From: a candidate division FCPU426 bacterium
GTDB taxonomy: Bacteria > Oederibacteriota > JAAXVQ01 > JAUVAV01
Length of the DNA stretch: 64,000 nt
Assembly (NCBI GenBank): GCA_040756875.1
Contig: JBFLYH010000002.1
Location: 959,078 to 1,023,077 of the forward strand
Reading direction: 5' to 3'
Position 1 is the first letter of the stretch, and every line of letters begins with the position of its first letter. The translations under genes were made by a program, and so were the position numbers. Below the pieces are notes generated by a model. The model was not told the origin of the DNA and made no database searches. It saw only the letters and a list, made by a program, of their open reading frames with translations. Below are positions 2,889 to 49,624 of the stretch, piece after piece.

Positions 2889-3113
2889 ATGATCGAGCTG
2901 ACCAAGTTGAACGGCGACCGGTTTTACCTGAACGAAAACTGGATCGAAACCGTGGAAGCCCTGCCGGATACCACCATCACGCTGCGCTCCGGCAACAAGG
3001 TGGTGGTGCTGGAGAAGATGGACGATGTTTTCGAAAAGATGCTCGACTGGCAGGTTATTCGCGACAAAGTCGGCAAACGCAGCCCGTTGAATCCCGCTTC
3101 CCACCGGCGCTGA
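2889..3113 (+). CDS. flbD: Flagellar FlbD-family protein
   Basis: MIELTKLNG..FYLN..IETVEALPDTTITL..G.KVVV.E; usual position between flgE and motA. Confidence 0.88.
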   Translation: MIELTKLNGDRFYLNENWIETVEALPDTTITLRSGNKVVVLEKMDDVFEKMLDWQVIRDKVGKRSPLNPASHRR

Positions 3114-3171: not shown

Positions 3172-3960
3172 ATGGATCTGGCAACTGTCGGCGGACTCAT
3201 CCTGGCATGGGGATCAGTCATTTCGCTGATCTATATCGAGGGCGGCAACCTGGCCAGCTTGTGGAATTTCGGCGCCATGGTGCTGGTCGTGGGCGGCACC
3301 ATCGGCGCTACGGTCATCGGCTCCAAAATGGAGGACATCCTTAACCTGCCCAGCGTCATTCTCAAGGCGGTTTTGACCAAAACCGTGGAAGTGGGAAAAA
3401 CCATCGGCATGCTGGTCGATCTGTCGCGCACAGTGCGCAAGGAGGGGCTCCTTTCCCTGGAGCGGGCGAGCGAGAACATTCAGGACGCTTTTTTTAAGAA
3501 AGCCATACAGATCGTGGTGGACGGCTTGGACGCGGAACAAGTCCGCAACATCCTGGAAACCGATCTGGACCTGCTCGAGGAACGGCACAAACGCAGCCAG
3601 AAGATCTTCGCCACCTTGGGCGGGTTCGCCCCCACCTTGGGCATCATCGGCACCGTGCTGGGGCTGGTGCACATGCTGGCCAACATCTCTTCGCCCGACA
3701 CGATGGGACCAGCCATCGCCGCGGCGTTCATCGCCACGCTCTACGGCGTGAGCACGGCCAACCTGCTCTATTTGCCGATCGGCAACAAGCTCAAACGCGG
3801 CAGCGAGGAGGAGACGCTCGAACGCCGCATCATCCTGGAAGGCATCATCTCCATCCAGGCGGGCGACAACCCCCGGATCCTGGAGGAGAAGCTGTTGAGT
3901 TTCCTGCCGCCCAAACTGAGAGTTCAGGTGGCCAGCAAGCTCAAGGAGACCAAAAAATGA
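3172..3960 (+). CDS. motA: Flagellar stator subunit A
   Basis: RKEGLLSLE, APTLGIIGTVLGLV, ATLYG, IQAGDNPR motifs. Confidence 0.95.
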   Translation: MDLATVGGLILAWGSVISLIYIEGGNLASLWNFGAMVLVVGGTIGATVIGSKMEDILNLPSVILKAVLTKTVEVGKTIGMLVDLSRTVRKEGLLSLERASENIQDAFFKKAIQIVVDGLDAEQVRNILETDLDLLEERHKRSQKIFATLGGFAPTLGIIGTVLGLVHMLANISSPDTMGPAIAAAFIATLYGVSTANLLYLPIGNKLKRGSEEETLERRIILEGIISIQAGDNPRILEEKLLSFLPPKLRVQVASKLKETKK

Positions 3961-4772
3961 GCGGGCGCAAGCACAAGGAAGAGGAAGAAAACCAGGAGCG
4001 CTGGCTTTTGACCTATGCGGACATGATCACGCTGCTGGTGGCCTTCTTCATGATGATGTATTCCATGTCCGTGCTCAACCTGGAAAAATTCAAGGCTGCG
4101 GCCATGGGCATCCGCTCCGGGTTCAACAGCCCGGCCATGGGGCTCAAGCACACGGGCGACTCGCTGCTGGAGAAAGGCGCCAGCACGCAGGTCCAGCCGA
4201 AGATCGAACTGCCCGTGGAGCCGCCGCCTTCCATGCGGACCGAAACCAGGCCGCCGCAACCGGCGCCTTCGGCGCGGCGGCAGGGCGTGCCGCCGCAGCC
4301 GACCCGCTCGGAGCGCGTGCAGCGCCTGGTCGCGGAGCTGAACCGCAGCCTGACCGGCGTGACCCGGGGCAGCGCGGCGCGGGTAACCGCGGAAAAATCG
4401 GGCGTAGCCATCGAATTGATGGGAGACCTGATCTTTTTTCCCACTGGCAGCGCCGAGCTCAGCGCGGAAGCCAGGAACATCCTTTTGGCTGTCAGCGGCG
4501 CCTTGCGGCCCCTGCCGAACGAGATTTCAGTGGAAGGCTATACAGGACATTTCGAAGCCGCGCCTTCAAACCCATTTACCAGCAGTTGGGAGTTGTCCGC
4601 GGCCCGCGCCGTGGCGGTGATTAAGTTCCTGACGGAAAAGACCAATATCAGTCCGGGCCGGATTTCCCTGACCGGTTACGGGCAATACCGCACGCGCCCC
4701 GTCGGCCCGGCGGCTGTTCCGCGGCCGAATATGCCTAATGATTTGGTGCGGATATTTATTTATCAGGATTGA
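3957..4772 (+). CDS. motB: Flagellar stator subunit B
   Basis: RWLLTYADMITLL TM motif; OmpA-like domain with WELSAARA; ATGA overlap with motA. Confidence 0.93.
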   Translation: MSGRKHKEEEENQERWLLTYADMITLLVAFFMMMYSMSVLNLEKFKAAAMGIRSGFNSPAMGLKHTGDSLLEKGASTQVQPKIELPVEPPPSMRTETRPPQPAPSARRQGVPPQPTRSERVQRLVAELNRSLTGVTRGSAARVTAEKSGVAIELMGDLIFFPTGSAELSAEARNILLAVSGALRPLPNEISVEGYTGHFEAAPSNPFTSSWELSAARAVAVIKFLTEKTNISPGRISLTGYGQYRTRPVGPAAVPRPNMPNDLVRIFIYQD

Positions 4773-4794
4773 TCCGTAATCCGGCAACCGGAGT

Positions 4795-4823
4795 CTAAAG
4801 TCGCATAAGTTAACAGCCGATAC
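4795..4823 (+). promoter_or_regulatory. Putative sigma28 (FliA) promoter
   Basis: CTAAAG (TAAA 4796-4799), 16 nt, GCCGATAC (4816-4823); matches the TAAA-N15/16-GCCGATA(A/T) consensus; fliA is in the same cluster. Confidence 0.65.
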
Positions 4824-4843
4824 TTGCTCAAGAAAAAGATGGC

Positions 4844-5171
4844 GGCTTGCGCCGCAAAAGATTCATCCCCTTCGCCATGCGCAACAGTTGGCAATGAAGC
4901 CAGGCGGAGGATGCCAGGCTCGGGGATGATATAAACAAGTTTTACGGCTTGCGCCGCAAAAGATACATCCCCTTCGCCATTGGCAATTGTTGGTTGTGAG
5001 TGCCGGCGAAAATTGACGGGCTCGGGGATGACATTCACAGGTTTTGCGGCTTGCGCCGCAAAAGATTCATCCCCTTCGCCATGCGCAACAGTTGGCAATG
5101 AAGCCAGGCGGAGGATGCCAGGCTCGGGGATGATATAAACAAGTTTTACGGCTTGCGCCGCAAAAGATTCA
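4844..5171 (+). repeat. Tandem array of 102-bp structured units (A-B-A plus partial)
   Basis: Units start at 4844, 4946, 5048 and 5150; units 1 and 3 identical, unit 2 diverged; conserved palindromic block GGGGATGA...TTTTrCGGC-TTGC-GCCGCAAAA...CATCCCC. Confidence 0.95.
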
Positions 5172-5182
5172 CCTCACGGGGT

Positions 5183-5216
5183 ACAGGGGCTTGGGAAACC
5201 AAGCCCCTGTTTTTTT
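5183..5216 (+). terminator. Intrinsic terminator closing the repeat array
   Basis: ACAGGGGCTTGG-GAAA-CCAAGCCCCTGT (12-bp perfect stem) followed by TTTTTT. Confidence 0.9.
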
Positions 5217-5405
5217 ACGCCTGTTTGGATGAACCGCCTGGAAGTATTTCCATACTTTGGGTTCATCCACTATGGAACCACCTACCTAGTTCTCTCCAGT
5301 CTGTGGAGCGGATGCCGCAGTCTGTCTGCAGGGAAAAAAAGCCTCAATAATTAAGCCGATATGAAATGCATTCCGCCCTTTATGGCGCCGGCTGGCCGCG
5401 AGGAT

Positions 5406-5421
5406 TGGCATGGGGTTTGCT
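5406..5421 (+). promoter_or_regulatory. Putative sigma54 promoter of the fliL-flhA operon
   Basis: TGGCAT-GGGGT-TTGCT; GG (5407-8) and GC (5419-20) at -24/-12 spacing; a sigma54 activator is encoded in the operon. Confidence 0.65.
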
Positions 5422-5468
5422 TTCCATAGGTGAGGAGTTCACTACCTAATAGGCGGGCGAGGGAAACC

Positions 5469-6074
5469 ATGGACAAAGACAAAAATGCAAGCACTGCGAC
5501 AAACGACCCATCCCAGCAGATTAAATTGTTGCTTATCGTGGTTTTGGTGGCTGCGGTGATCGCGCCGCTGATCTCGAGCCTGGTGGTTGTCGGTTCACTG
5601 GGCGGAAAGTTGTCAAGCATAGCAGCCAAGCAAGAACCCGAGAAAGAGGAAAGCGGCGAAGAAGGTGGAGAAAGGAACGCCGAGGCGCAAAAGCCCATTA
5701 TATTTTATGAACCCATGGAGTTCCTGGTCAATTTGGCGGATACCGAGGCCAATCACTACTTGAAAACCACCGTCAGTCTGGGCGCCCGGATCGAGGAGTC
5801 CGAGGAAAAAAGCGAGGGTAAGAAAAAAGGCGGGCATGGCGGCGGACACGGCGCCAAACAGGCCGGCCCGCAGCCGGCTTTGTTCCAGACCATTAAAGCC
5901 CGCGAACCCATGATCCGCGACCTCATTATTTCGGTGATTTCCGCCTATCCCATGGCGGTGTTGGTGTCCGTGCAGGGCAAACGGGAGCTGAAGGAGGCAC
6001 TGAGCGCCCGCCTGCAACAGGAATTGGGGACCAGCGAACTGACCGTGTATTTCACATCCTTTACCCTGCAATAG
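5469..6074 (+). CDS. fliL: Flagellar basal body-associated protein
   Basis: Single N-terminal TM; EFLVNLAD..HYLK, IRDLII, VYFTSFTLQ. Confidence 0.88.
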   Translation: MDKDKNASTATNDPSQQIKLLLIVVLVAAVIAPLISSLVVVGSLGGKLSSIAAKQEPEKEESGEEGGERNAEAQKPIIFYEPMEFLVNLADTEANHYLKTTVSLGARIEESEEKSEGKKKGGHGGGHGAKQAGPQPALFQTIKAREPMIRDLIISVISAYPMAVLVSVQGKRELKEALSARLQQELGTSELTVYFTSFTLQ

Positions 6075-13174: not shown

Positions 13175-14662
13175 ATGGAACGGACGAAACGCCTGAAGAT
13201 CGTGGCCATCGACGACGAGCCGGAGATTTGCTGGCTGTTGACCCGCATTCTCGAGGAGGAGGGGCACCTGCCGCTGGTGGCGGACAACGGCCCCGAAGGC
13301 CTGGAGCTCGTCCGGCGGGAAAATCCGGACCTGGTCTTCCTGGATTTGCGCCTCCCGGGCATGGACGGCCTGGAAGTGCTGCGCCAGATCCGCGAGTTCG
13401 ACCAGGACCTGATGGTCATCATCCTTTCGGCCTTTGAAAGCTTCGAGGCTGCGGTGCAGTCCATGAAGCTGGGCTCGTACGATTTTTTAACCAAGCCGAT
13501 CAACGTGGAGGAGATGAAGATCACCCTTAAAAACGCCCTGCGCACCAAGCGCCTGCTCAGCGAAGTGAGCCATCTGCGGCGCCGCATGGCGCAGAGCGAG
13601 GAAGCCAGCCAGCTGATCGGCTCCTGCCCGGCCATGCAGCAGCTTATCAAGCAGATCGACCTGGTGAGCCAGCACAACATCTCCGTGCTCATTCTGGGCG
13701 AAAGCGGAACGGGCAAGGAACTGGTCGCCCGGGCCGTGCATTTTAAAAGCGGACGCCGGGAAGAGCCCCTGGTGTGCATCGACTGCTCGACCATTCCCGA
13801 AAACCTGATCGAGAGCGAACTCTTCGGCTACGAGCGGGGCGCGTTCACGGGCGCGGGGGAGCGCAAAATCGGACGGCTGGAAATGGCCAACCGCGGCACC
13901 CTGTTTCTGGACGAGATCGGCAATATGTCGCCCGCCCTGCAGATCAAGCTGCTTCGCGTCATCCAGGAGCGCACGCTGGTGCGCCTGGGCGGCAAGACTG
14001 CCGTGGCCATCGACATCCGCCTGATCACGGCCACCAACCAGGACCTGCGCCAGGGCATCAGCGCGGGCACGTTCCGGGAGGACCTGTATTACCGCCTGAA
14101 TGAATACGCGCTGGAGCTGCCGTCCCTGCGGGAGCGGGGCGAAGACATCCGGTTGCTCGCCAAGTATTTCCTCGACAAGTTCAACCGCGAGTTCGGCAAG
14201 TCCATCCGCGGCCTGAACCCCGCGGCCCTGGCCTGCCTGGAGGGATATCCCTGGCCGGGAAACGTGCGGGAGTTGCAGGCGGTCATGAAGCGCGCCGCGA
14301 TTCTGGCCACGGACGCCGTCCAACCGGAACACCTGCCCGAAGCCGTGACCGGACGCAACACCGCCAGCCGTCCGTCGGCGCTGCTGATTCAGACCGATTT
14401 GAACGAGATCCGCCCGATCAAAGAGGTGTCGCGGGAAGTCGTGGCCCAGATCGAACGCGAATTAATCCAGCGAGCGCTGGAACGCAGCGGAGGCAACAAA
14501 CTCAAAACCGCGCGCTGGCTGGGCATCGACTACAAGACGCTGTTCAACAAACTCAAGCAGTACCGGATAGACAACAGCGGTTGGGAGCAGGCTCCGCTCG
14601 TGCCGACGGAGGCCTGGCAACCCACGGGGCTCGACGCCGCCCCCGGAGGGGGACAGCCATGA
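13175..14662 (+). CDS. NtrC-family sigma54-dependent response regulator (REC-AAA+-HTH)
   Basis: REC (DDE, LDL, KP), GESGTGKE, GAFTGA, FREDLYYRL, WPGNVREL, Fis-type HTH. Confidence 0.93.
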   Translation: MERTKRLKIVAIDDEPEICWLLTRILEEEGHLPLVADNGPEGLELVRRENPDLVFLDLRLPGMDGLEVLRQIREFDQDLMVIILSAFESFEAAVQSMKLGSYDFLTKPINVEEMKITLKNALRTKRLLSEVSHLRRRMAQSEEASQLIGSCPAMQQLIKQIDLVSQHNISVLILGESGTGKELVARAVHFKSGRREEPLVCIDCSTIPENLIESELFGYERGAFTGAGERKIGRLEMANRGTLFLDEIGNMSPALQIKLLRVIQERTLVRLGGKTAVAIDIRLITATNQDLRQGISAGTFREDLYYRLNEYALELPSLRERGEDIRLLAKYFLDKFNREFGKSIRGLNPAALACLEGYPWPGNVRELQAVMKRAAILATDAVQPEHLPEAVTGRNTASRPSALLIQTDLNEIRPIKEVSREVVAQIERELIQRALERSGGNKLKTARWLGIDYKTLFNKLKQYRIDNSGWEQAPLVPTEAWQPTGLDAAPGGGQP

Positions 14663-15054
14663 ACTGGATTTGGAATTTGTGGCGCGTGGCCATTTACTGG
14701 GGCTTGGCCCTGGTTCTGGGTTGGTGCGCGCTTTTCGGCGGCACGGTGCTGGGCTTTCTCGGGCGGGCGGCGGAAGCCATGCTTCTGCTCGGCGGCATCG
14801 CGCTGGCGGTTGTGGCCCTGGTCAACCGGTGCTGGCATCTGGCGGCGAAACCTGCTTCGATTGAACCCAAGCCTCCGGCCGCAGGGGGTGCGAAGTCCCC
14901 GGCCGTAGCGGGTGCGAAGTCCCCGGCCGTAGCGGGTGCGAAGTCCCCGGCCATAGCGGGGGCGAAGTCCCCGGCGGTCACGGGTGCTAAGCCTCAGGCG
15001 GCAACCGCCGCCAAAACGCCGGCGCTGGCCGGAACCGGACAGAAGGGAGTGTAA
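14659..15054 (+). CDS. Hypothetical two-TM protein with AGAKSPAV repeat tail
   Basis: ATGA overlap with upstream gene, GGAGG RBS; ends 3 nt before fliA. Confidence 0.6.
   Translation: MNWIWNLWRVAIYWGLALVLGWCALFGGTVLGFLGRAAEAMLLLGGIALAVVALVNRCWHLAAKPASIEPKPPAAGGAKSPAVAGAKSPAVAGAKSPAIAGAKSPAVTGAKPQAATAAKTPALAGTGQKGV
14887..14990 (+). repeat. 24-bp in-frame tandem repeat (~4.3 copies)
   Basis: GGTGCGAAGTCCCCGGCCGTAGCG unit encoding GAKSPAVA. Confidence 0.9.
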
Positions 15055-15057
15055 CGC

Positions 15058-15834
15058 ATGCAGGCCGAAGAACGGCGCGATTGGGACGCGTATCAAAAAC
15101 AGGGAGACCGGCAGGCCCATGCCCGGTTGTGCGAACGTTACCTCCCTGACGTGCGCCGGCTGGTCGGCCGCATGGCCATCTACCTGGGAGACGGTGTCTT
15201 GGACCGGGAGGACCTGATCCAGGCCGGCGTGATCGGGCTGATCCAGGCGATCGACCTGTACGATCCCGAACAATCCGTGCCGTTTATTGATTACGCGCGC
15301 AAGCGCATCCGCGGCGCGGTGTACGACGAGCTGCGGGCCCTGGACGGGTACTCTTCCCGCTCCCGGCGCCAGCAGCAGAGCCTGGAACGCATCCGGAACG
15401 TGCTGCAGCAGAAACTGCTGCGGATGCCGAGCGAGGAGGAAATCGCGGAGGAGATGGGCGTCAGCCTGGACCAGCTTCACCAGCTGCAGGCCAGTCTGCC
15501 GGCCATCCACACCGAGCCGCTGGACGCGGACCATGCCGAGGAGTTAGGCGTGCAGCACGGCCCGGGCAAGATCCGCAACTGGATTCCCGGCGCGGACGGG
15601 TGGTCCATGGCGGAAAAGTTTCAATTCGTCGCCCAGCGGATCGAGACGCTGCCCGAACGGGCCCAGATCGTGCTCGGCTTGTACTATCGCGACGGTCTGA
15701 CTTTGCGCGAAATCGCCGAGGTTCTGGACCTGACCGAAGCCCGGATCTGCCAGATTCACTCTGCGGCCCTGGAGGTGCTGGAACAGCAGCTCCAGGACCT
15801 GAGCGGCGCTTTCGTGTCGGAGCTGACGAAATGA
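15058..15834 (+). CDS. fliA: RNA polymerase sigma factor FliA/WhiG (sigma28)
   Basis: DLIQAGVIGLIQAID.YDP, RIRGAVYDELR.LD, LTLREIAEVLDLTEARICQIHS. Confidence 0.92.
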   Translation: MQAEERRDWDAYQKQGDRQAHARLCERYLPDVRRLVGRMAIYLGDGVLDREDLIQAGVIGLIQAIDLYDPEQSVPFIDYARKRIRGAVYDELRALDGYSSRSRRQQQSLERIRNVLQQKLLRMPSEEEIAEEMGVSLDQLHQLQASLPAIHTEPLDADHAEELGVQHGPGKIRNWIPGADGWSMAEKFQFVAQRIETLPERAQIVLGLYYRDGLTLREIAEVLDLTEARICQIHSAALEVLEQQLQDLSGAFVSELTK

Positions 15835-47814: not shown

Positions 47815-48222
47815 ATGCGACGCTATCTCAACATTCTGGAAGAGAAAAACGATCCCCGCCACATCGAGGAATACCTCGGCGCCTTCAGCGAGAGCCTCAA
47901 ACTCATCCTGCAGCAAAATCCGGTGGAGCGCATGGGGCACGCCGTGCTCCTGGCCGCGAAAACCGCCATGCGGCTCAAGGCCGCGGAACCCCGCTTGCGC
48001 GAACATGAAATCGCCAACCGCCTGCAGTTCATCGCCCGCAACATCCGCCTGACCACTATTCTCAAGGACCTGACTCCCGAGGAGAAACGCATTCTCAAGC
48101 TGCATCCGAGCAATCACAACGCTCCGGTCTCCAAACCGCGGCGCAAGCCGGCGGCTTCCTCCGGTGTGATTCCCCGCGGCGTCCGCAAGAGATCACAAAG
48201 GAGTAAGCCGCGGGGACGCTGA
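47815..48222 (+). CDS. Hypothetical protein with basic C-terminal tail
   Basis: Host-like codon usage; candidate promoter upstream. Confidence 0.65.
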   Translation: MRRYLNILEEKNDPRHIEEYLGAFSESLKLILQQNPVERMGHAVLLAAKTAMRLKAAEPRLREHEIANRLQFIARNIRLTTILKDLTPEEKRILKLHPSNHNAPVSKPRRKPAASSGVIPRGVRKRSQRSKPRGR

Positions 48223-48298
48223 ATGTCACACCCCGAACCTGTCATCCTCCCTCCGAATCCCCGATGCATACTGCGAGGCGCTGGTGAAGGGGTGAAAC

Positions 48299-49624
48299 GT
48301 GCCTGAATCTTTCTCCGCCAGACAATTAATCGGTTGCGCCCTGGCTATCGGGCTGCTGCTTACAGGCTGCCGCGGCGCCACCCAGGCCCCGGCCTGGTCC
48401 CAGCGCTCCCTGATCGCCGGCCCTGAAATCCTCGTCCGTCTCTGGCGCAAAACCCCCTTCACGCAAGTGCAGCTCTCCTGGGACGGCACGCCGCTGCTGG
48501 CGGTGGATGCCAACGGAGAAATCATCCCCCTGCCGCAGGTCAACCGGCTCTATTTCTACCAGCGCGGCGAGCAGGTGGCCCTGGCATTCAAAGCCGGCCG
48601 CAAGGCGGCCCGCGAAGCCCAGGCGTACTCCTCGCTGGTGCTGCGGGTCCCGGGATCCGAGGTCAAGGCGTTCACGGTGTTGATCCCGGAATACGGCCGG
48701 CGGCGCAACTACGGCGCCCAAGCCGTGAGCCTGTCCGTGAAATACGGGCACTTGGCGCTGATCAACCATCTGCCGCTGGAAATGTACCTGGCGCGCGTGC
48801 TGCCCGAGGAAATGGATCCGGAGCATTTCACGCTGGAGGCGCTCAAAGCCCAGGCCGTGGTGGCGCGCACCTGGTCCCTGACCAATCTCAACCGGCACGC
48901 CCGCTATGGGTATCATTTTTGCGACGGGCCCCACTGCCAGGCCTACCGCGGCCGCAAGCGGGTGTCCGGCCGGGCCGAGGACGCGGTGAAGATGACCCTG
49001 GGCGAAGTGGTGCTCTCCGGCGGCGAGCCGGCCGAGGCGTTTTACCACAGCACCTGCGGGGGCAACACGGCGTTCGTGGAAGACGTATGGCCCGGGGCCC
49101 GGCTTCCGTATCTGAGGCGCGTCGAGGACCGCTTCCGCCCCGGTCAGCGCGCCTACTGCGCCCATTCCCCCTATTCACGCTGGACGCTGTGGACTTCGCT
49201 CCGGCACGTGGAGCGGGTATTGAAACGCCGCCAGGCGATCGCCGCCGAAACCAATCTGCTGGACGTCAAAGTGGACGCGGTCAACCGTTCCGGCCGCGTG
49301 CTCAGGATTTGGCTGGCCACAGACCGCGGCGAATTGACACTGGGCGGGGAGTCCTTTCGCGCGTGGCTGAACGAGGAGTTCGGGCGAAAGCTCCTGAGCA
49401 CGTTTTATTCCATCAGGGTGGAGGACGGGCAGTTTAAGCTGGAGGGGAAAGGCCTGGGACACGGGGTCGGCATGTGCCAATGGGGCGCCCGGGGCATGGC
49501 CCAGCTCGGTTTTTCCTACCAGGACATCCTACAGCATTACTTTCCGGGGACCACGATCGGCCGGTTCGAGGGGGCGGCCGTGGAACCCGGGGCGACCACG
49601 GTGAATTCGCACGCCGGGAAGTAG
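48299..49624 (+). CDS. SpoIID/LytB-domain lytic transglycosylase (probable lipoprotein)
   Basis: LLTGC; YLARVLPEEM, EALKAQAVVART, CQAY, YHSTCGG, GHGVGMCQWGA. Confidence 0.9.
   Translation: MPESFSARQLIGCALAIGLLLTGCRGATQAPAWSQRSLIAGPEILVRLWRKTPFTQVQLSWDGTPLLAVDANGEIIPLPQVNRLYFYQRGEQVALAFKAGRKAAREAQAYSSLVLRVPGSEVKAFTVLIPEYGRRRNYGAQAVSLSVKYGHLALINHLPLEMYLARVLPEEMDPEHFTLEALKAQAVVARTWSLTNLNRHARYGYHFCDGPHCQAYRGRKRVSGRAEDAVKMTLGEVVLSGGEPAEAFYHSTCGGNTAFVEDVWPGARLPYLRRVEDRFRPGQRAYCAHSPYSRWTLWTSLRHVERVLKRRQAIAAETNLLDVKVDAVNRSGRVLRIWLATDRGELTLGGESFRAWLNEEFGRKLLSTFYSIRVEDGQFKLEGKGLGHGVGMCQWGARGMAQLGFSYQDILQHYFPGTTIGRFEGAAVEPGATTVNSHAGK

Follow-up and report, generated by a model that had tools for sequence, protein, structure and literature searches.

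A tandem array of a hairpin repeat, probably a dispersed non-coding element, between motB and fliL of an uncultured bacterium

The Repeat Array Downstream of motB

The flagellar gene cluster of a candidate division FCPU426 bacterium (assembly GCA_040756875.1, contig JBFLYH010000002.1) contains an array of 102-bp tandem repeats in the spacer between motB and fliL. The array lies in a stretch of 64 kb, here called the window, which is part of a genome of 3.2 Mb and 100% completeness designated G000; the genome of a genus-mate is designated G001. In an original prediction, the array was regarded as a modular RNA gene standing on its own and belonging to no recognised family. The analysis presented here suggests that it was probably formed from copies of a hairpin element that is dispersed in this genome and in its relatives.

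By Tandem Repeats Finder, the array was located at 4843-5171, with a period of 102, 3.2 copies, 80% matches and a score of 502; its full extent is 4842-5172 on the plus strand. In a self-comparison at an offset of 204, positions 4842-4964 were identical with 5046-5168, which gives the layout A-B-A. For the description of the single copies and of the wider repeat family, covariance models were built stepwise, namely R1 from the 64-nt core of the array, R2 from 5 sequences and R3 from 26 sequences. The copies and the signals on both sides of them are as follows.

4796..4823, plus strand: sigma28 (FliA)-type promoter motif TCTAAAG-N-GCCGATAC, with TAAA at 4796 and GCCGATAC at 4816
4842..4866, plus strand: stub E0, from a truncated element copy of which the 3' part (second hairpin and GATTCAT) is present, identical with 5046-5070; weak R1 match of 29.6 bits
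4867..4968, plus strand: element copy E1, variable segment A and core, starting with CCCCTTCGCC and ending with GATACAT; R2 and R3 match the array full length, boundaries assigned by reading
4969..5070, plus strand: element copy E2, variable segment B and core; it differs from the A-type unit at 23 of 102 positions, and 17 of these fall in the variable hairpin of 38 nt
5071..5172, plus strand: element copy E3, variable segment A and core, ending with GATTCAC; sequence identical with E1 over the shared part; family-model match of 68.2 bits
5183..5216, plus strand: intrinsic terminator with a 12-bp stem (5183-5210, 8 G-C pairs), a GAAA loop and a following T run

The copies are joined head to tail, with TTCAT directly followed by CCCCTTCGCC, and a near-palindrome, TTTTRCGGC-TTGC-GCCGCAAAA, occurs in the array in four copies at a spacing of 102 bp. 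The differences between the A-type and the B-type unit are distributed unevenly, with 6 of 64 positions changed in the core and 17 of 38 in the variable segment (Fisher p = 6e-5). The match of 21 of 38 positions between the two variable segments, already described in the original prediction, was found again, and was reached by 2 of 20000 shuffles. Pairing was rejected as the reason for the conservation of the core, since A-B differences are equally frequent at paired (4 of 44) and unpaired (2 of 20) positions, and the comparison of the A unit to the B unit alone revealed no covariation. The arrangement was also evaluated in an independent Logan assembly from the only sequencing run found to contain the stretch, a DNA run which is probably the source sample. 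Here, the contigs end exactly at the repeat, and their depths (flanks, 59 and 55; A piece, 105.6; B piece, 44.5) fit two A units and one B unit. The layout of 3.2 repeats in the order A-B-A on the plus strand, the TAAA-N16 motif in front of them and the GAAA-loop terminator behind them were thus all present as the original prediction had described them.

No protein is likely to be encoded by the array. A 111-aa open reading frame (ORF) on the minus strand has a GC content at third codon positions (GC3) of 0.48, compared to about 0.75-0.85 in the neighbouring genes; it belongs to no Pfam or NCBIfam family, and among 5.8 billion proteins its only match was itself. Both this ORF and a 31-aa ORF on the plus strand were rejected as genes; no frame is shared across the copies. 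The original view that the region holds no credible ORF is therefore supported, and the same applies to its statement that no known RNA family is recognised: in Rfam, nothing was identified at gathering thresholds in the whole window or on the loci of 5 other copies of the repeat family described below, and the best match in 4300-5700 was sX12, located on the terminator, with 23 bits against a threshold of 106. A BLAST search with the motB-fliL spacer in 60 relatives gave two 23-nt chance matches only. Exact 20-mers in species-representative genomes gave two unrelated single matches at about chance level, with no similarity beyond the 20-mer, and no match to the array was found in plasmids, phages and viral contigs.

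A Dispersed Repeat Family in the Genus and the Order

With R1, one full-length match of 31.8 bits was identified in G001. This copy consists of the 102-nt unit and the first 13 nt of a second one, and has a SPOR/TPR gene on one side and mutS on the other, with an orientation antisense to the latter; in its inner hairpin, three U-A pairs are replaced by C-G. BLAST with this copy revealed two more in the same genome, of which the first is located in the rplN-rplX spacer and the second directly at the start codon of parA. R3 was then applied to 40 genomes at E <= 1e-3, with rough E-values and with 87 candidates scored per genome, so that the copy numbers are lower bounds. Matches were obtained in 9 of the 40 genomes, G000 included, and none among the 87 candidates of each of the other 31.

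G000: at least 17 matches, three of them in the array and one at 48154-48307 of the window
G001: at least 18 matches; same genus
G012: at least 16 matches; same order, another family
G013: at least 6 matches
G005: at least 6 matches, mostly partial, to the second hairpin
G007: at least 5 matches
G009: at least 3 matches
G020: at least 3 matches
G003: at least 2 matches

The units of the array score 64.6-73 bits with R3. An element is thereby identified which this genus shares with further genomes of the order, and the stand-alone RNA gene of the original prediction is not upheld, since its unit occurs scattered over G000, G001 and G012. Scattering as an ordinary repetitive extragenic palindrome (REP) or MITE (a miniature transposable element with inverted repeats) had been named there as a finding that would speak against the RNA gene, and it was found at the level of diverged copies.

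From the alignment of 26 copies, a common plan was deduced for the element, which has a size of about 102-155 bp. It comprises a 5' box ACCCCTTCGCC, a variable first hairpin, a middle box (GGCyCGGGGyATGAyATyCgGAT), a second hairpin (ACCCyGCrG / loop / CyGCrGGGT) and, as the 3' box, AGTTCAT. Conservation of the boxes between the hairpins extends over two families of the order. As there is no complementarity between the ends ACCCCTTCGCC and AGTTCAT, terminal inverted repeats are absent.

Outside the array, another, single copy lies in the window.

48154..48307, minus strand: family copy, full length, R3 match of 38.5 bits (E = 6e-8)

On one side of it is an ORF of the plus strand, whose end is near 48222, and on the other a gene of the minus strand (48326-49165). 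In G005, the partial matches cover the second-hairpin part only and lie on several contigs (for example C64:20019-20062), some of them about 45-70 nt apart; they may represent a different, shorter hairpin repeat family.

Structure, Orientation, and Insertion Sites of the Copies

In the second hairpin, 91.4% of the cells pair and 6 of 7 pairs were changed on both sides. For the structure of the whole model, the observed covariation was reached by 0 of 500 shuffles, and sliding the partners reduced pairing from 82.9% to 37-47%, in an alignment fitted to the plus-strand model, which favours structure and G-U pairs. In the second hairpin, the sequence thus drifts, but compensatory changes maintain the pairing.

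For 13 loci in G000, the orientation of the element to the neighbouring genes was determined on heuristic gene calls (ORF >= 70 aa, GC3 >= 0.66). Four copies are in sense and three in antisense orientation to co-directional genes, four are located between convergent genes and two inside ORFs. No reading frame is kept across the 26 copies on the reverse strand, and neither a shared -35 element nor a shared terminator was seen among the copies. Several copies start right behind the T run of an upstream terminator, and a U run follows only about 2-7 of 21 copies (by eye). The sequence [T/C]TAT is located directly before 12 of the 21 copies, as read by eye from the flanks.

One of the copies inside ORFs is contained in a 2003-aa ORF, at a position which appears to be the same in both species (G000 C3:64666-64793 and G001 C4:240110-240244), as judged by the similar flanks; here, the element may have been inserted in frame into coding sequence.

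At three sites, namely the mutS leader, the rplN-rplX spacer and the parA site, G001 carries the element and the site of G000 is empty. At parA, the empty site of G000 reads GGTTTAT/GAGC, and the filled site of G001 reads GGTTGAT, then the element ending with TTCAT, then GAGC. No target duplication is present at this site, and the last bases of the element restore the ATG.

The Flagellar Context and the Junction in Relatives

The genes and signals around the array are listed here.

2889-3113: FlbD, within the upstream flagellar block
3957..4772, plus strand: motB (Pfam MotB_plug and OmpA), the last gene of the block fliK-flgD-flgE-flbD-motA-motB
5226..5277, plus strand: upstream-activator-like inverted repeats ahead of fliL and outside the array, TGGATGAACC/GGTTCATCCA and TTCCATAC...TATGGAA
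5335..5362, plus strand: second, weaker sigma28-like motif AAAA-N14-16-GCCGATAT ahead of fliL, about 50 nt upstream of the sigma54 promoter
5406..5421, plus strand: sigma54-type promoter of the fliL operon, TGGCAT-N5-TTGCT; TGGCA and TTGCTT are invariant in a three-way alignment with two relatives
5430..6074, plus strand: fliL (Pfam FliL), the first gene downstream of the array
13175-14662: sigma54 activator gene
15058..15834, plus strand: gene for a FliA/WhiG-family sigma factor (TIGR02479, 192.7 bits against a cut-off of 189.6), which would read the motif at 4796

On the 3' side of the array, the gene order is fliL, fliM, fliN, an unassigned ORF, fliP, fliQ, fliR, flhA, the sigma54 activator gene and the gene for the FliA/WhiG sigma factor. 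The usual flbD-motAB-fliL operon is split here, since the terminator and the sigma54-type promoter lie between its two parts. From the motB stop codon to 5183, no terminator-like site was found on the plus strand, so that the array lies most likely within the motB transcript and is most likely transcribed passively as the motB 3' untranslated region (UTR). In addition, it may be transcribed from the sigma28-like motif ahead of it. Judged by its sequence, the site at 5183-5216 would terminate this transcript as well as any transcript driven by sigma28.

A MotB of this type was found in 3 of 10 other genomes of the family, and three further relatives, with 56, 48 and 37% identity, were obtained from metagenome contigs. 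FlhA was not found in four family members searched, G001 included. In G003, a terminator follows about 70 nt after the motB stop codon, then the boxes TTCCAYAC...TATGGAA, and then TGGCAY-N5-TTGCTT before fliL. The junction on the metagenome contig L021 is identical to that of G003 over the stretch read, and the junction on contig L022 has the same activator boxes and sigma54 promoter. In the three aligned junctions, the boxes (5248-5277 in the window) are invariant. The array and the sigma28 motif are present at the junction of neither G003 nor L022, which are the two flagellated relatives whose junction was read. Since these relatives keep the boxes and the promoter without the array, the array is a lineage-specific insertion between the motB stop codon and the operon terminator. 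G007 and G009 offer no comparison, because fliL does not directly follow motB there.

Two further observations were made in the cluster. The 10-bp inverted repeat TGGATGAACC/GGTTCATCCA is specific for the window. Between the sigma54 activator gene and fliA, a 131-aa ORF (14659-15054, plus strand) overlaps the activator stop codon with its start (ATGA); it has a hydrophobic N-terminus and no Pfam family, and it contains a tandem repeat at 14875-14991 (24 bp, 4.9 copies) which codes for repeats of the type P-A-x-x-G-A-K-S.

Origin of the Array

The mixed orientation of the copies, their presence inside ORFs, the lack of a common frame, -35 element or terminator, and the sites that are filled in one species and empty in the other argue for a REP/MITE-like DNA element rather than for an RNA with a specific sense strand. 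On this basis, the array is probably a tandem amplification of this dispersed, non-coding hairpin element in the 3'UTR of motB, and a dedicated flagellar RNA gene is unlikely.

A possible route to the array can be proposed. Single copies are usually preceded by a TTAT-like sequence, and TTCAT is the end of the element itself, which makes it plausible that a new copy would land directly behind an old one. Later unequal recombination could then have produced the exact 204-bp duplication of the A-B-A layout. As mobilisers, Y1 transposases resembling REP-associated tyrosine transposases (RAYT; here RayT-like) are candidates, for which no link to the element was found. Two Y1 genes each are present in G000 (C1:1034297-1034623 and C1:1040425-1040754) and in G001 (C2:90008 and C2:98993). 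The RayT-like Y1 genes code for about 336-350 aa and lie roughly 6-9 kb apart in each genome, and for the one gene scanned, that of G000 at C1:1040425, the REP-associated tyrosine transposase was the best family, with 75.6 bits against a cut-off of 80. Genes of the TnpB type were not found over the cut-off in G000, G001 and G009. Any effect of the array would probably be a by-product, in that the motB message would carry stable hairpins at its 3' end.

The protein encoded at C1:1040425 carries its Y1 domain at the N-terminus, followed by a long C-terminal extension of unknown family.

Several points weigh against an amplified mobile repeat. BLAST with the array's own units matched the array alone in G000, and nhmmer found no further copy in this genome (next best E = 0.031). 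The units of the array are the most atypical members of the family, with a UUUUGCGGC stem instead of ACCCyGCrG, and the copies outside the array are old and diverged. Mobility rests on three filled-versus-empty sites, for which deletion could give the same picture. An autonomous parent element was not found, and no R2 or R3 match better than E = 0.5 lies within 1.5 kb of the four Y1 genes of G000 and G001. Among the R3 matches listed for the 40 genomes, there is no other tandem array of the family. In plus orientation, G-U pairs exceed A-C pairs (44 versus 24, p = 0.02), which could hint at selection at the RNA level; in the well-aligned second hairpin, the two are equal (4 versus 4). Finally, a sigma28-like motif directly ahead of the array is improbable by chance and is left unexplained by a repeat origin.

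The next-best nhmmer match (C1:45199-45262), with 25 of 30 positions identical inside a likely gene, was judged a chance match and rejected.

A separate observation concerns MutS of G000 (C1:678122-680158), which has an in-frame deletion of about 140 residues (...HPEALL/ELGRLQP...) by which the mismatch-binding domain I is lost completely, together with the first part of domain II. No MutS_I domain was identified anywhere in the G000 genome. In G001, MutS_I was found with 143 bits, 8 further genomes of the family match the query over residues 1 through 323, and in a ninth, G008, the match is in two pieces on separate contigs. Mismatch repair may be naturally defective in G000, and such a defect could promote the expansion of repeats and recombination among diverged ones.

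Alternative Roles for the Array

The sigma28-type motif was examined further. It is located 24 nt past the motB stop codon, with 16 nt between TAAA and GCCGATA, and a transcript starting from it would begin at about 4830-4831, as judged from the position of the motif. The strict pattern occurs once in the window, compared to an expectation of 0.05, and shuffling of the 328-nt non-repeat spacer produced it in 41 of 200000 cases. In the excerpt of PMC2859248, the consensus for E. coli is TAAAGTTT-n11-GCCGATAA, and the excerpt of PMC12784957 gives TCTAAAG together with GCCGATAA at -15 to -8 for the fliC promoter of Pseudomonas. The motif at 4796 resembles both; written as TAAAGTCG-N12-GCCGATAC, its spacer is one base longer than in the consensus given in that part of PMC2859248, and it ends with C where the consensus has A. 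With one mismatch or none allowed, the 51-kb flagellar region was found to contain only two sites, at 4796 and at 5335-5362, of which the latter is not conserved in G003. A general scan for promoter-like sites on both strands of 4300-5700 found none.

On these grounds, it is conceivable, though unlikely, that the element copies were exapted as a late-flagellar RNA, a structured, trans-acting or processed transcript of about 385 nt (about 4830-5216) driven by this promoter. The local improbability of the strict motif (TCTAAAG, GCCGATA), a FliA/WhiG gene in the same cluster, the strong terminator at the end of the unit, a fold of the plus strand with z = -4.7 and the second GCCGATAT in the same spacer all fit such an RNA, and sigma28-dependent small RNAs (sRNAs) are a known kind, according to excerpts of PMC11187230 and PMC10578931. 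However, the motif is not enriched in the genome, with 4 strict sites compared to 2.8 on average for permuted -10 words; none of the genes behind the three other strict sites is flagellar, and no sigma28 motif was found in the flagellin leader. In addition, the motif deviates from the consensus, promoter and array are absent from the two flagellated relatives, and the body of the RNA would be a generic repeat. The three other strict TAAA-N14/15-GCCGATAA sites, all on the minus strand (C1:995016, C2:722597 and C2:707436), are located upstream of a clpC-like gene, a gene for a receiver-histidine kinase hybrid and ftsH, at distances of 92-146 nt and each directed at the gene, and may represent a non-flagellar regulon of the FliA/WhiG type.

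A more elaborate version would combine this transcript with the mobile element. An undescribed, long-lived hairpin element of an uncultured candidate phylum would insert 3' of TTAT-like sites, perhaps via RayT-like Y1 transposases, and would form tandem arrays by targeting its own TTCAT tail; one such array, captured between a FliA promoter and a terminator, would be a newborn structured RNA of the late flagellar class, with two GGAGGAU loops resembling Shine-Dalgarno or CsrA sites. This is a long shot. If true, a regulatory RNA would be seen arising from a mobile element.

It is distinctly improbable that the whole family represents a multi-copy structured RNA or a cis-regulatory leader, so that the array would consist of three such RNAs, read from either strand. 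The strong covariation of the second hairpin, the excess of G-U over A-C pairs in plus orientation, the conservation of the boxes across two families of the order and the presence of copies that end in a hairpin and a U-rich stretch are consistent with an RNA, as are the minus-strand hairpins of the array, which have GCAA loops and in which the A/G variant forms a G-U pair. The RNA of the minus strand also folds better (z = -7.0) than that of the plus strand, and a weak terminator-like site is located at 4855-4842. Against an RNA family, the copies show no orientation bias to genes, two of them lie inside ORFs, no promoter is shared, the U run is confined to the few copies mentioned, sites are filled or empty between two species, and Rfam gave no match. 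A minus-strand RNA of its own was rejected, as 4300-5700 contains no promoter-like site and both neighbouring genes are on the plus strand.

A role as a decoy for CsrA, in which the GGAGGAU of the A units in a 5-nt hairpin loop would titrate the protein and couple late flagellar transcription to flagellin translation, is very improbable. The original prediction had suggested that the genome be checked for csrA and fliW, and both genes were identified in a row with the flagellin gene (G000 C2:936562-937765), 22 kb upstream. A similar hairpin, CGGC-AGGGAU-GCCG, is present in the flagellin leader, as is an AAGGAGGA ribosome-binding site, and the GGA of both A loops is predicted to be unpaired with a probability of about 1. 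The sponge of the CsrB type considered originally is nevertheless weak, because the loop lies in the variable segment of the family and its hairpin is not kept in the B unit, and because only two exposed GGA loops are predicted in the 387 nt, where three GGGGAUG sites would be fully paired and one GGA would lie in the terminator loop. Furthermore, the protein antagonist FliW is present, and in the excerpt of PMC4894983 this arrangement is one without a known sRNA antagonist. The flagellin leader hairpin and AAGGAGGA form in themselves a classic two-site CsrA arrangement.

That the four TTTTRCGGC-TTGC-GCCGCAAAA copies act as DNA sites for a regulator of the fliL sigma54 promoter is barely credible: they lie 240-580 bp upstream of it and an activator gene is present in the cluster, but the conserved activator-like boxes are located elsewhere (5248-5277) and shared with relatives without the array, a terminator separates the array from the promoter, and the hairpin sequence varies among the family copies while pairing is kept.

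Comparison to Known Elements and RNAs

REP doublets forming hairpins (REPINs), described in the excerpts of PMC3337134 and PMC3116915, consist of two REPs in inverted orientation, and repeats of this system flank the RAYT gene. Like the REP and REPIN sequences in these excerpts, the element considered to underlie the array is short, non-coding, hairpin-forming, mostly intergenic and persistent within its lineage, and RayT-like Y1 genes are present as low-copy genes. In contrast to them, it consists of two hairpins in direct order with asymmetric ends and not of two inverted REPs, its copies number in tens and not in hundreds, and it was not found beside the RayT-like genes, of which the one scanned has a RayT score just under the cut-off.

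Non-autonomous elements of the IS200/IS605 type, also called palindrome-associated, have asymmetric ends and subterminal hairpins and insert 3' of a short specific sequence with no obvious target duplication. In agreement with this type are the parA site and the TTAT-like sequence that precedes 12 of 21 copies. However, no parent insertion sequence with tnpA or tnpB and these ends was found, and a mechanism of this type is conjectural.

ERIC, Correia and RUP are MITE-like intergenic repeats. As in this class, described in part in PMC3184786, the element has 100-150 bp, is intergenic in either orientation, is probably co-transcribed with flanking genes and can possibly form RNA hairpins. It differs from the class by the lack of terminal inverted repeats and of a TA-type duplication.

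Among the sigma28-dependent sRNAs are MotR, FliX, UhpU and FlgO of E. coli (PMC10578931, in part) and CJnc170/FlmR of C. jejuni (PMC11187230, in part). As far as these sources go, the array is similar to them in its location in or at the UTR of a flagellar gene, its sigma28-type motif and its intrinsic terminator; it differs in that it is not conserved and that its body consists of copies of a repeat element. With the CsrB/RsmZ sponges, it shares GGA motifs in hairpin loops, but it has two predicted exposed sites and not many, has no Rfam match, and its motif is present neither in unit B nor in the family. The order of promoter, tandem repeats and terminator is also that of ToxI repeats and CRISPR arrays. 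Unlike for the type III antitoxin ToxI, the gene after the array is fliL and not a toxN-like gene; unlike in CRISPR, as judged from the layout of the repeats alone, the "spacer" A is repeated identically, the repeat has 64 nt and the unit is found singly elsewhere.

Implications

Taken alone, the array is a local curiosity, in which a repeat amplified in a 3'UTR accounts for an apparent new RNA gene. The element family has a wider meaning. As far as can be judged from the genomes compared, it is a family absent from Rfam whose boxes, covarying hairpin and apparently site-specific insertion extend across at least two families of an uncultured lineage, and it could offer a way to approach the movement of such elements in this lineage. 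In addition, searches with a unit's own sequence may report a repeat as "unique" where an iterated model that takes structure into account finds a family, a contrast that matters for judging other "orphan" repeats.

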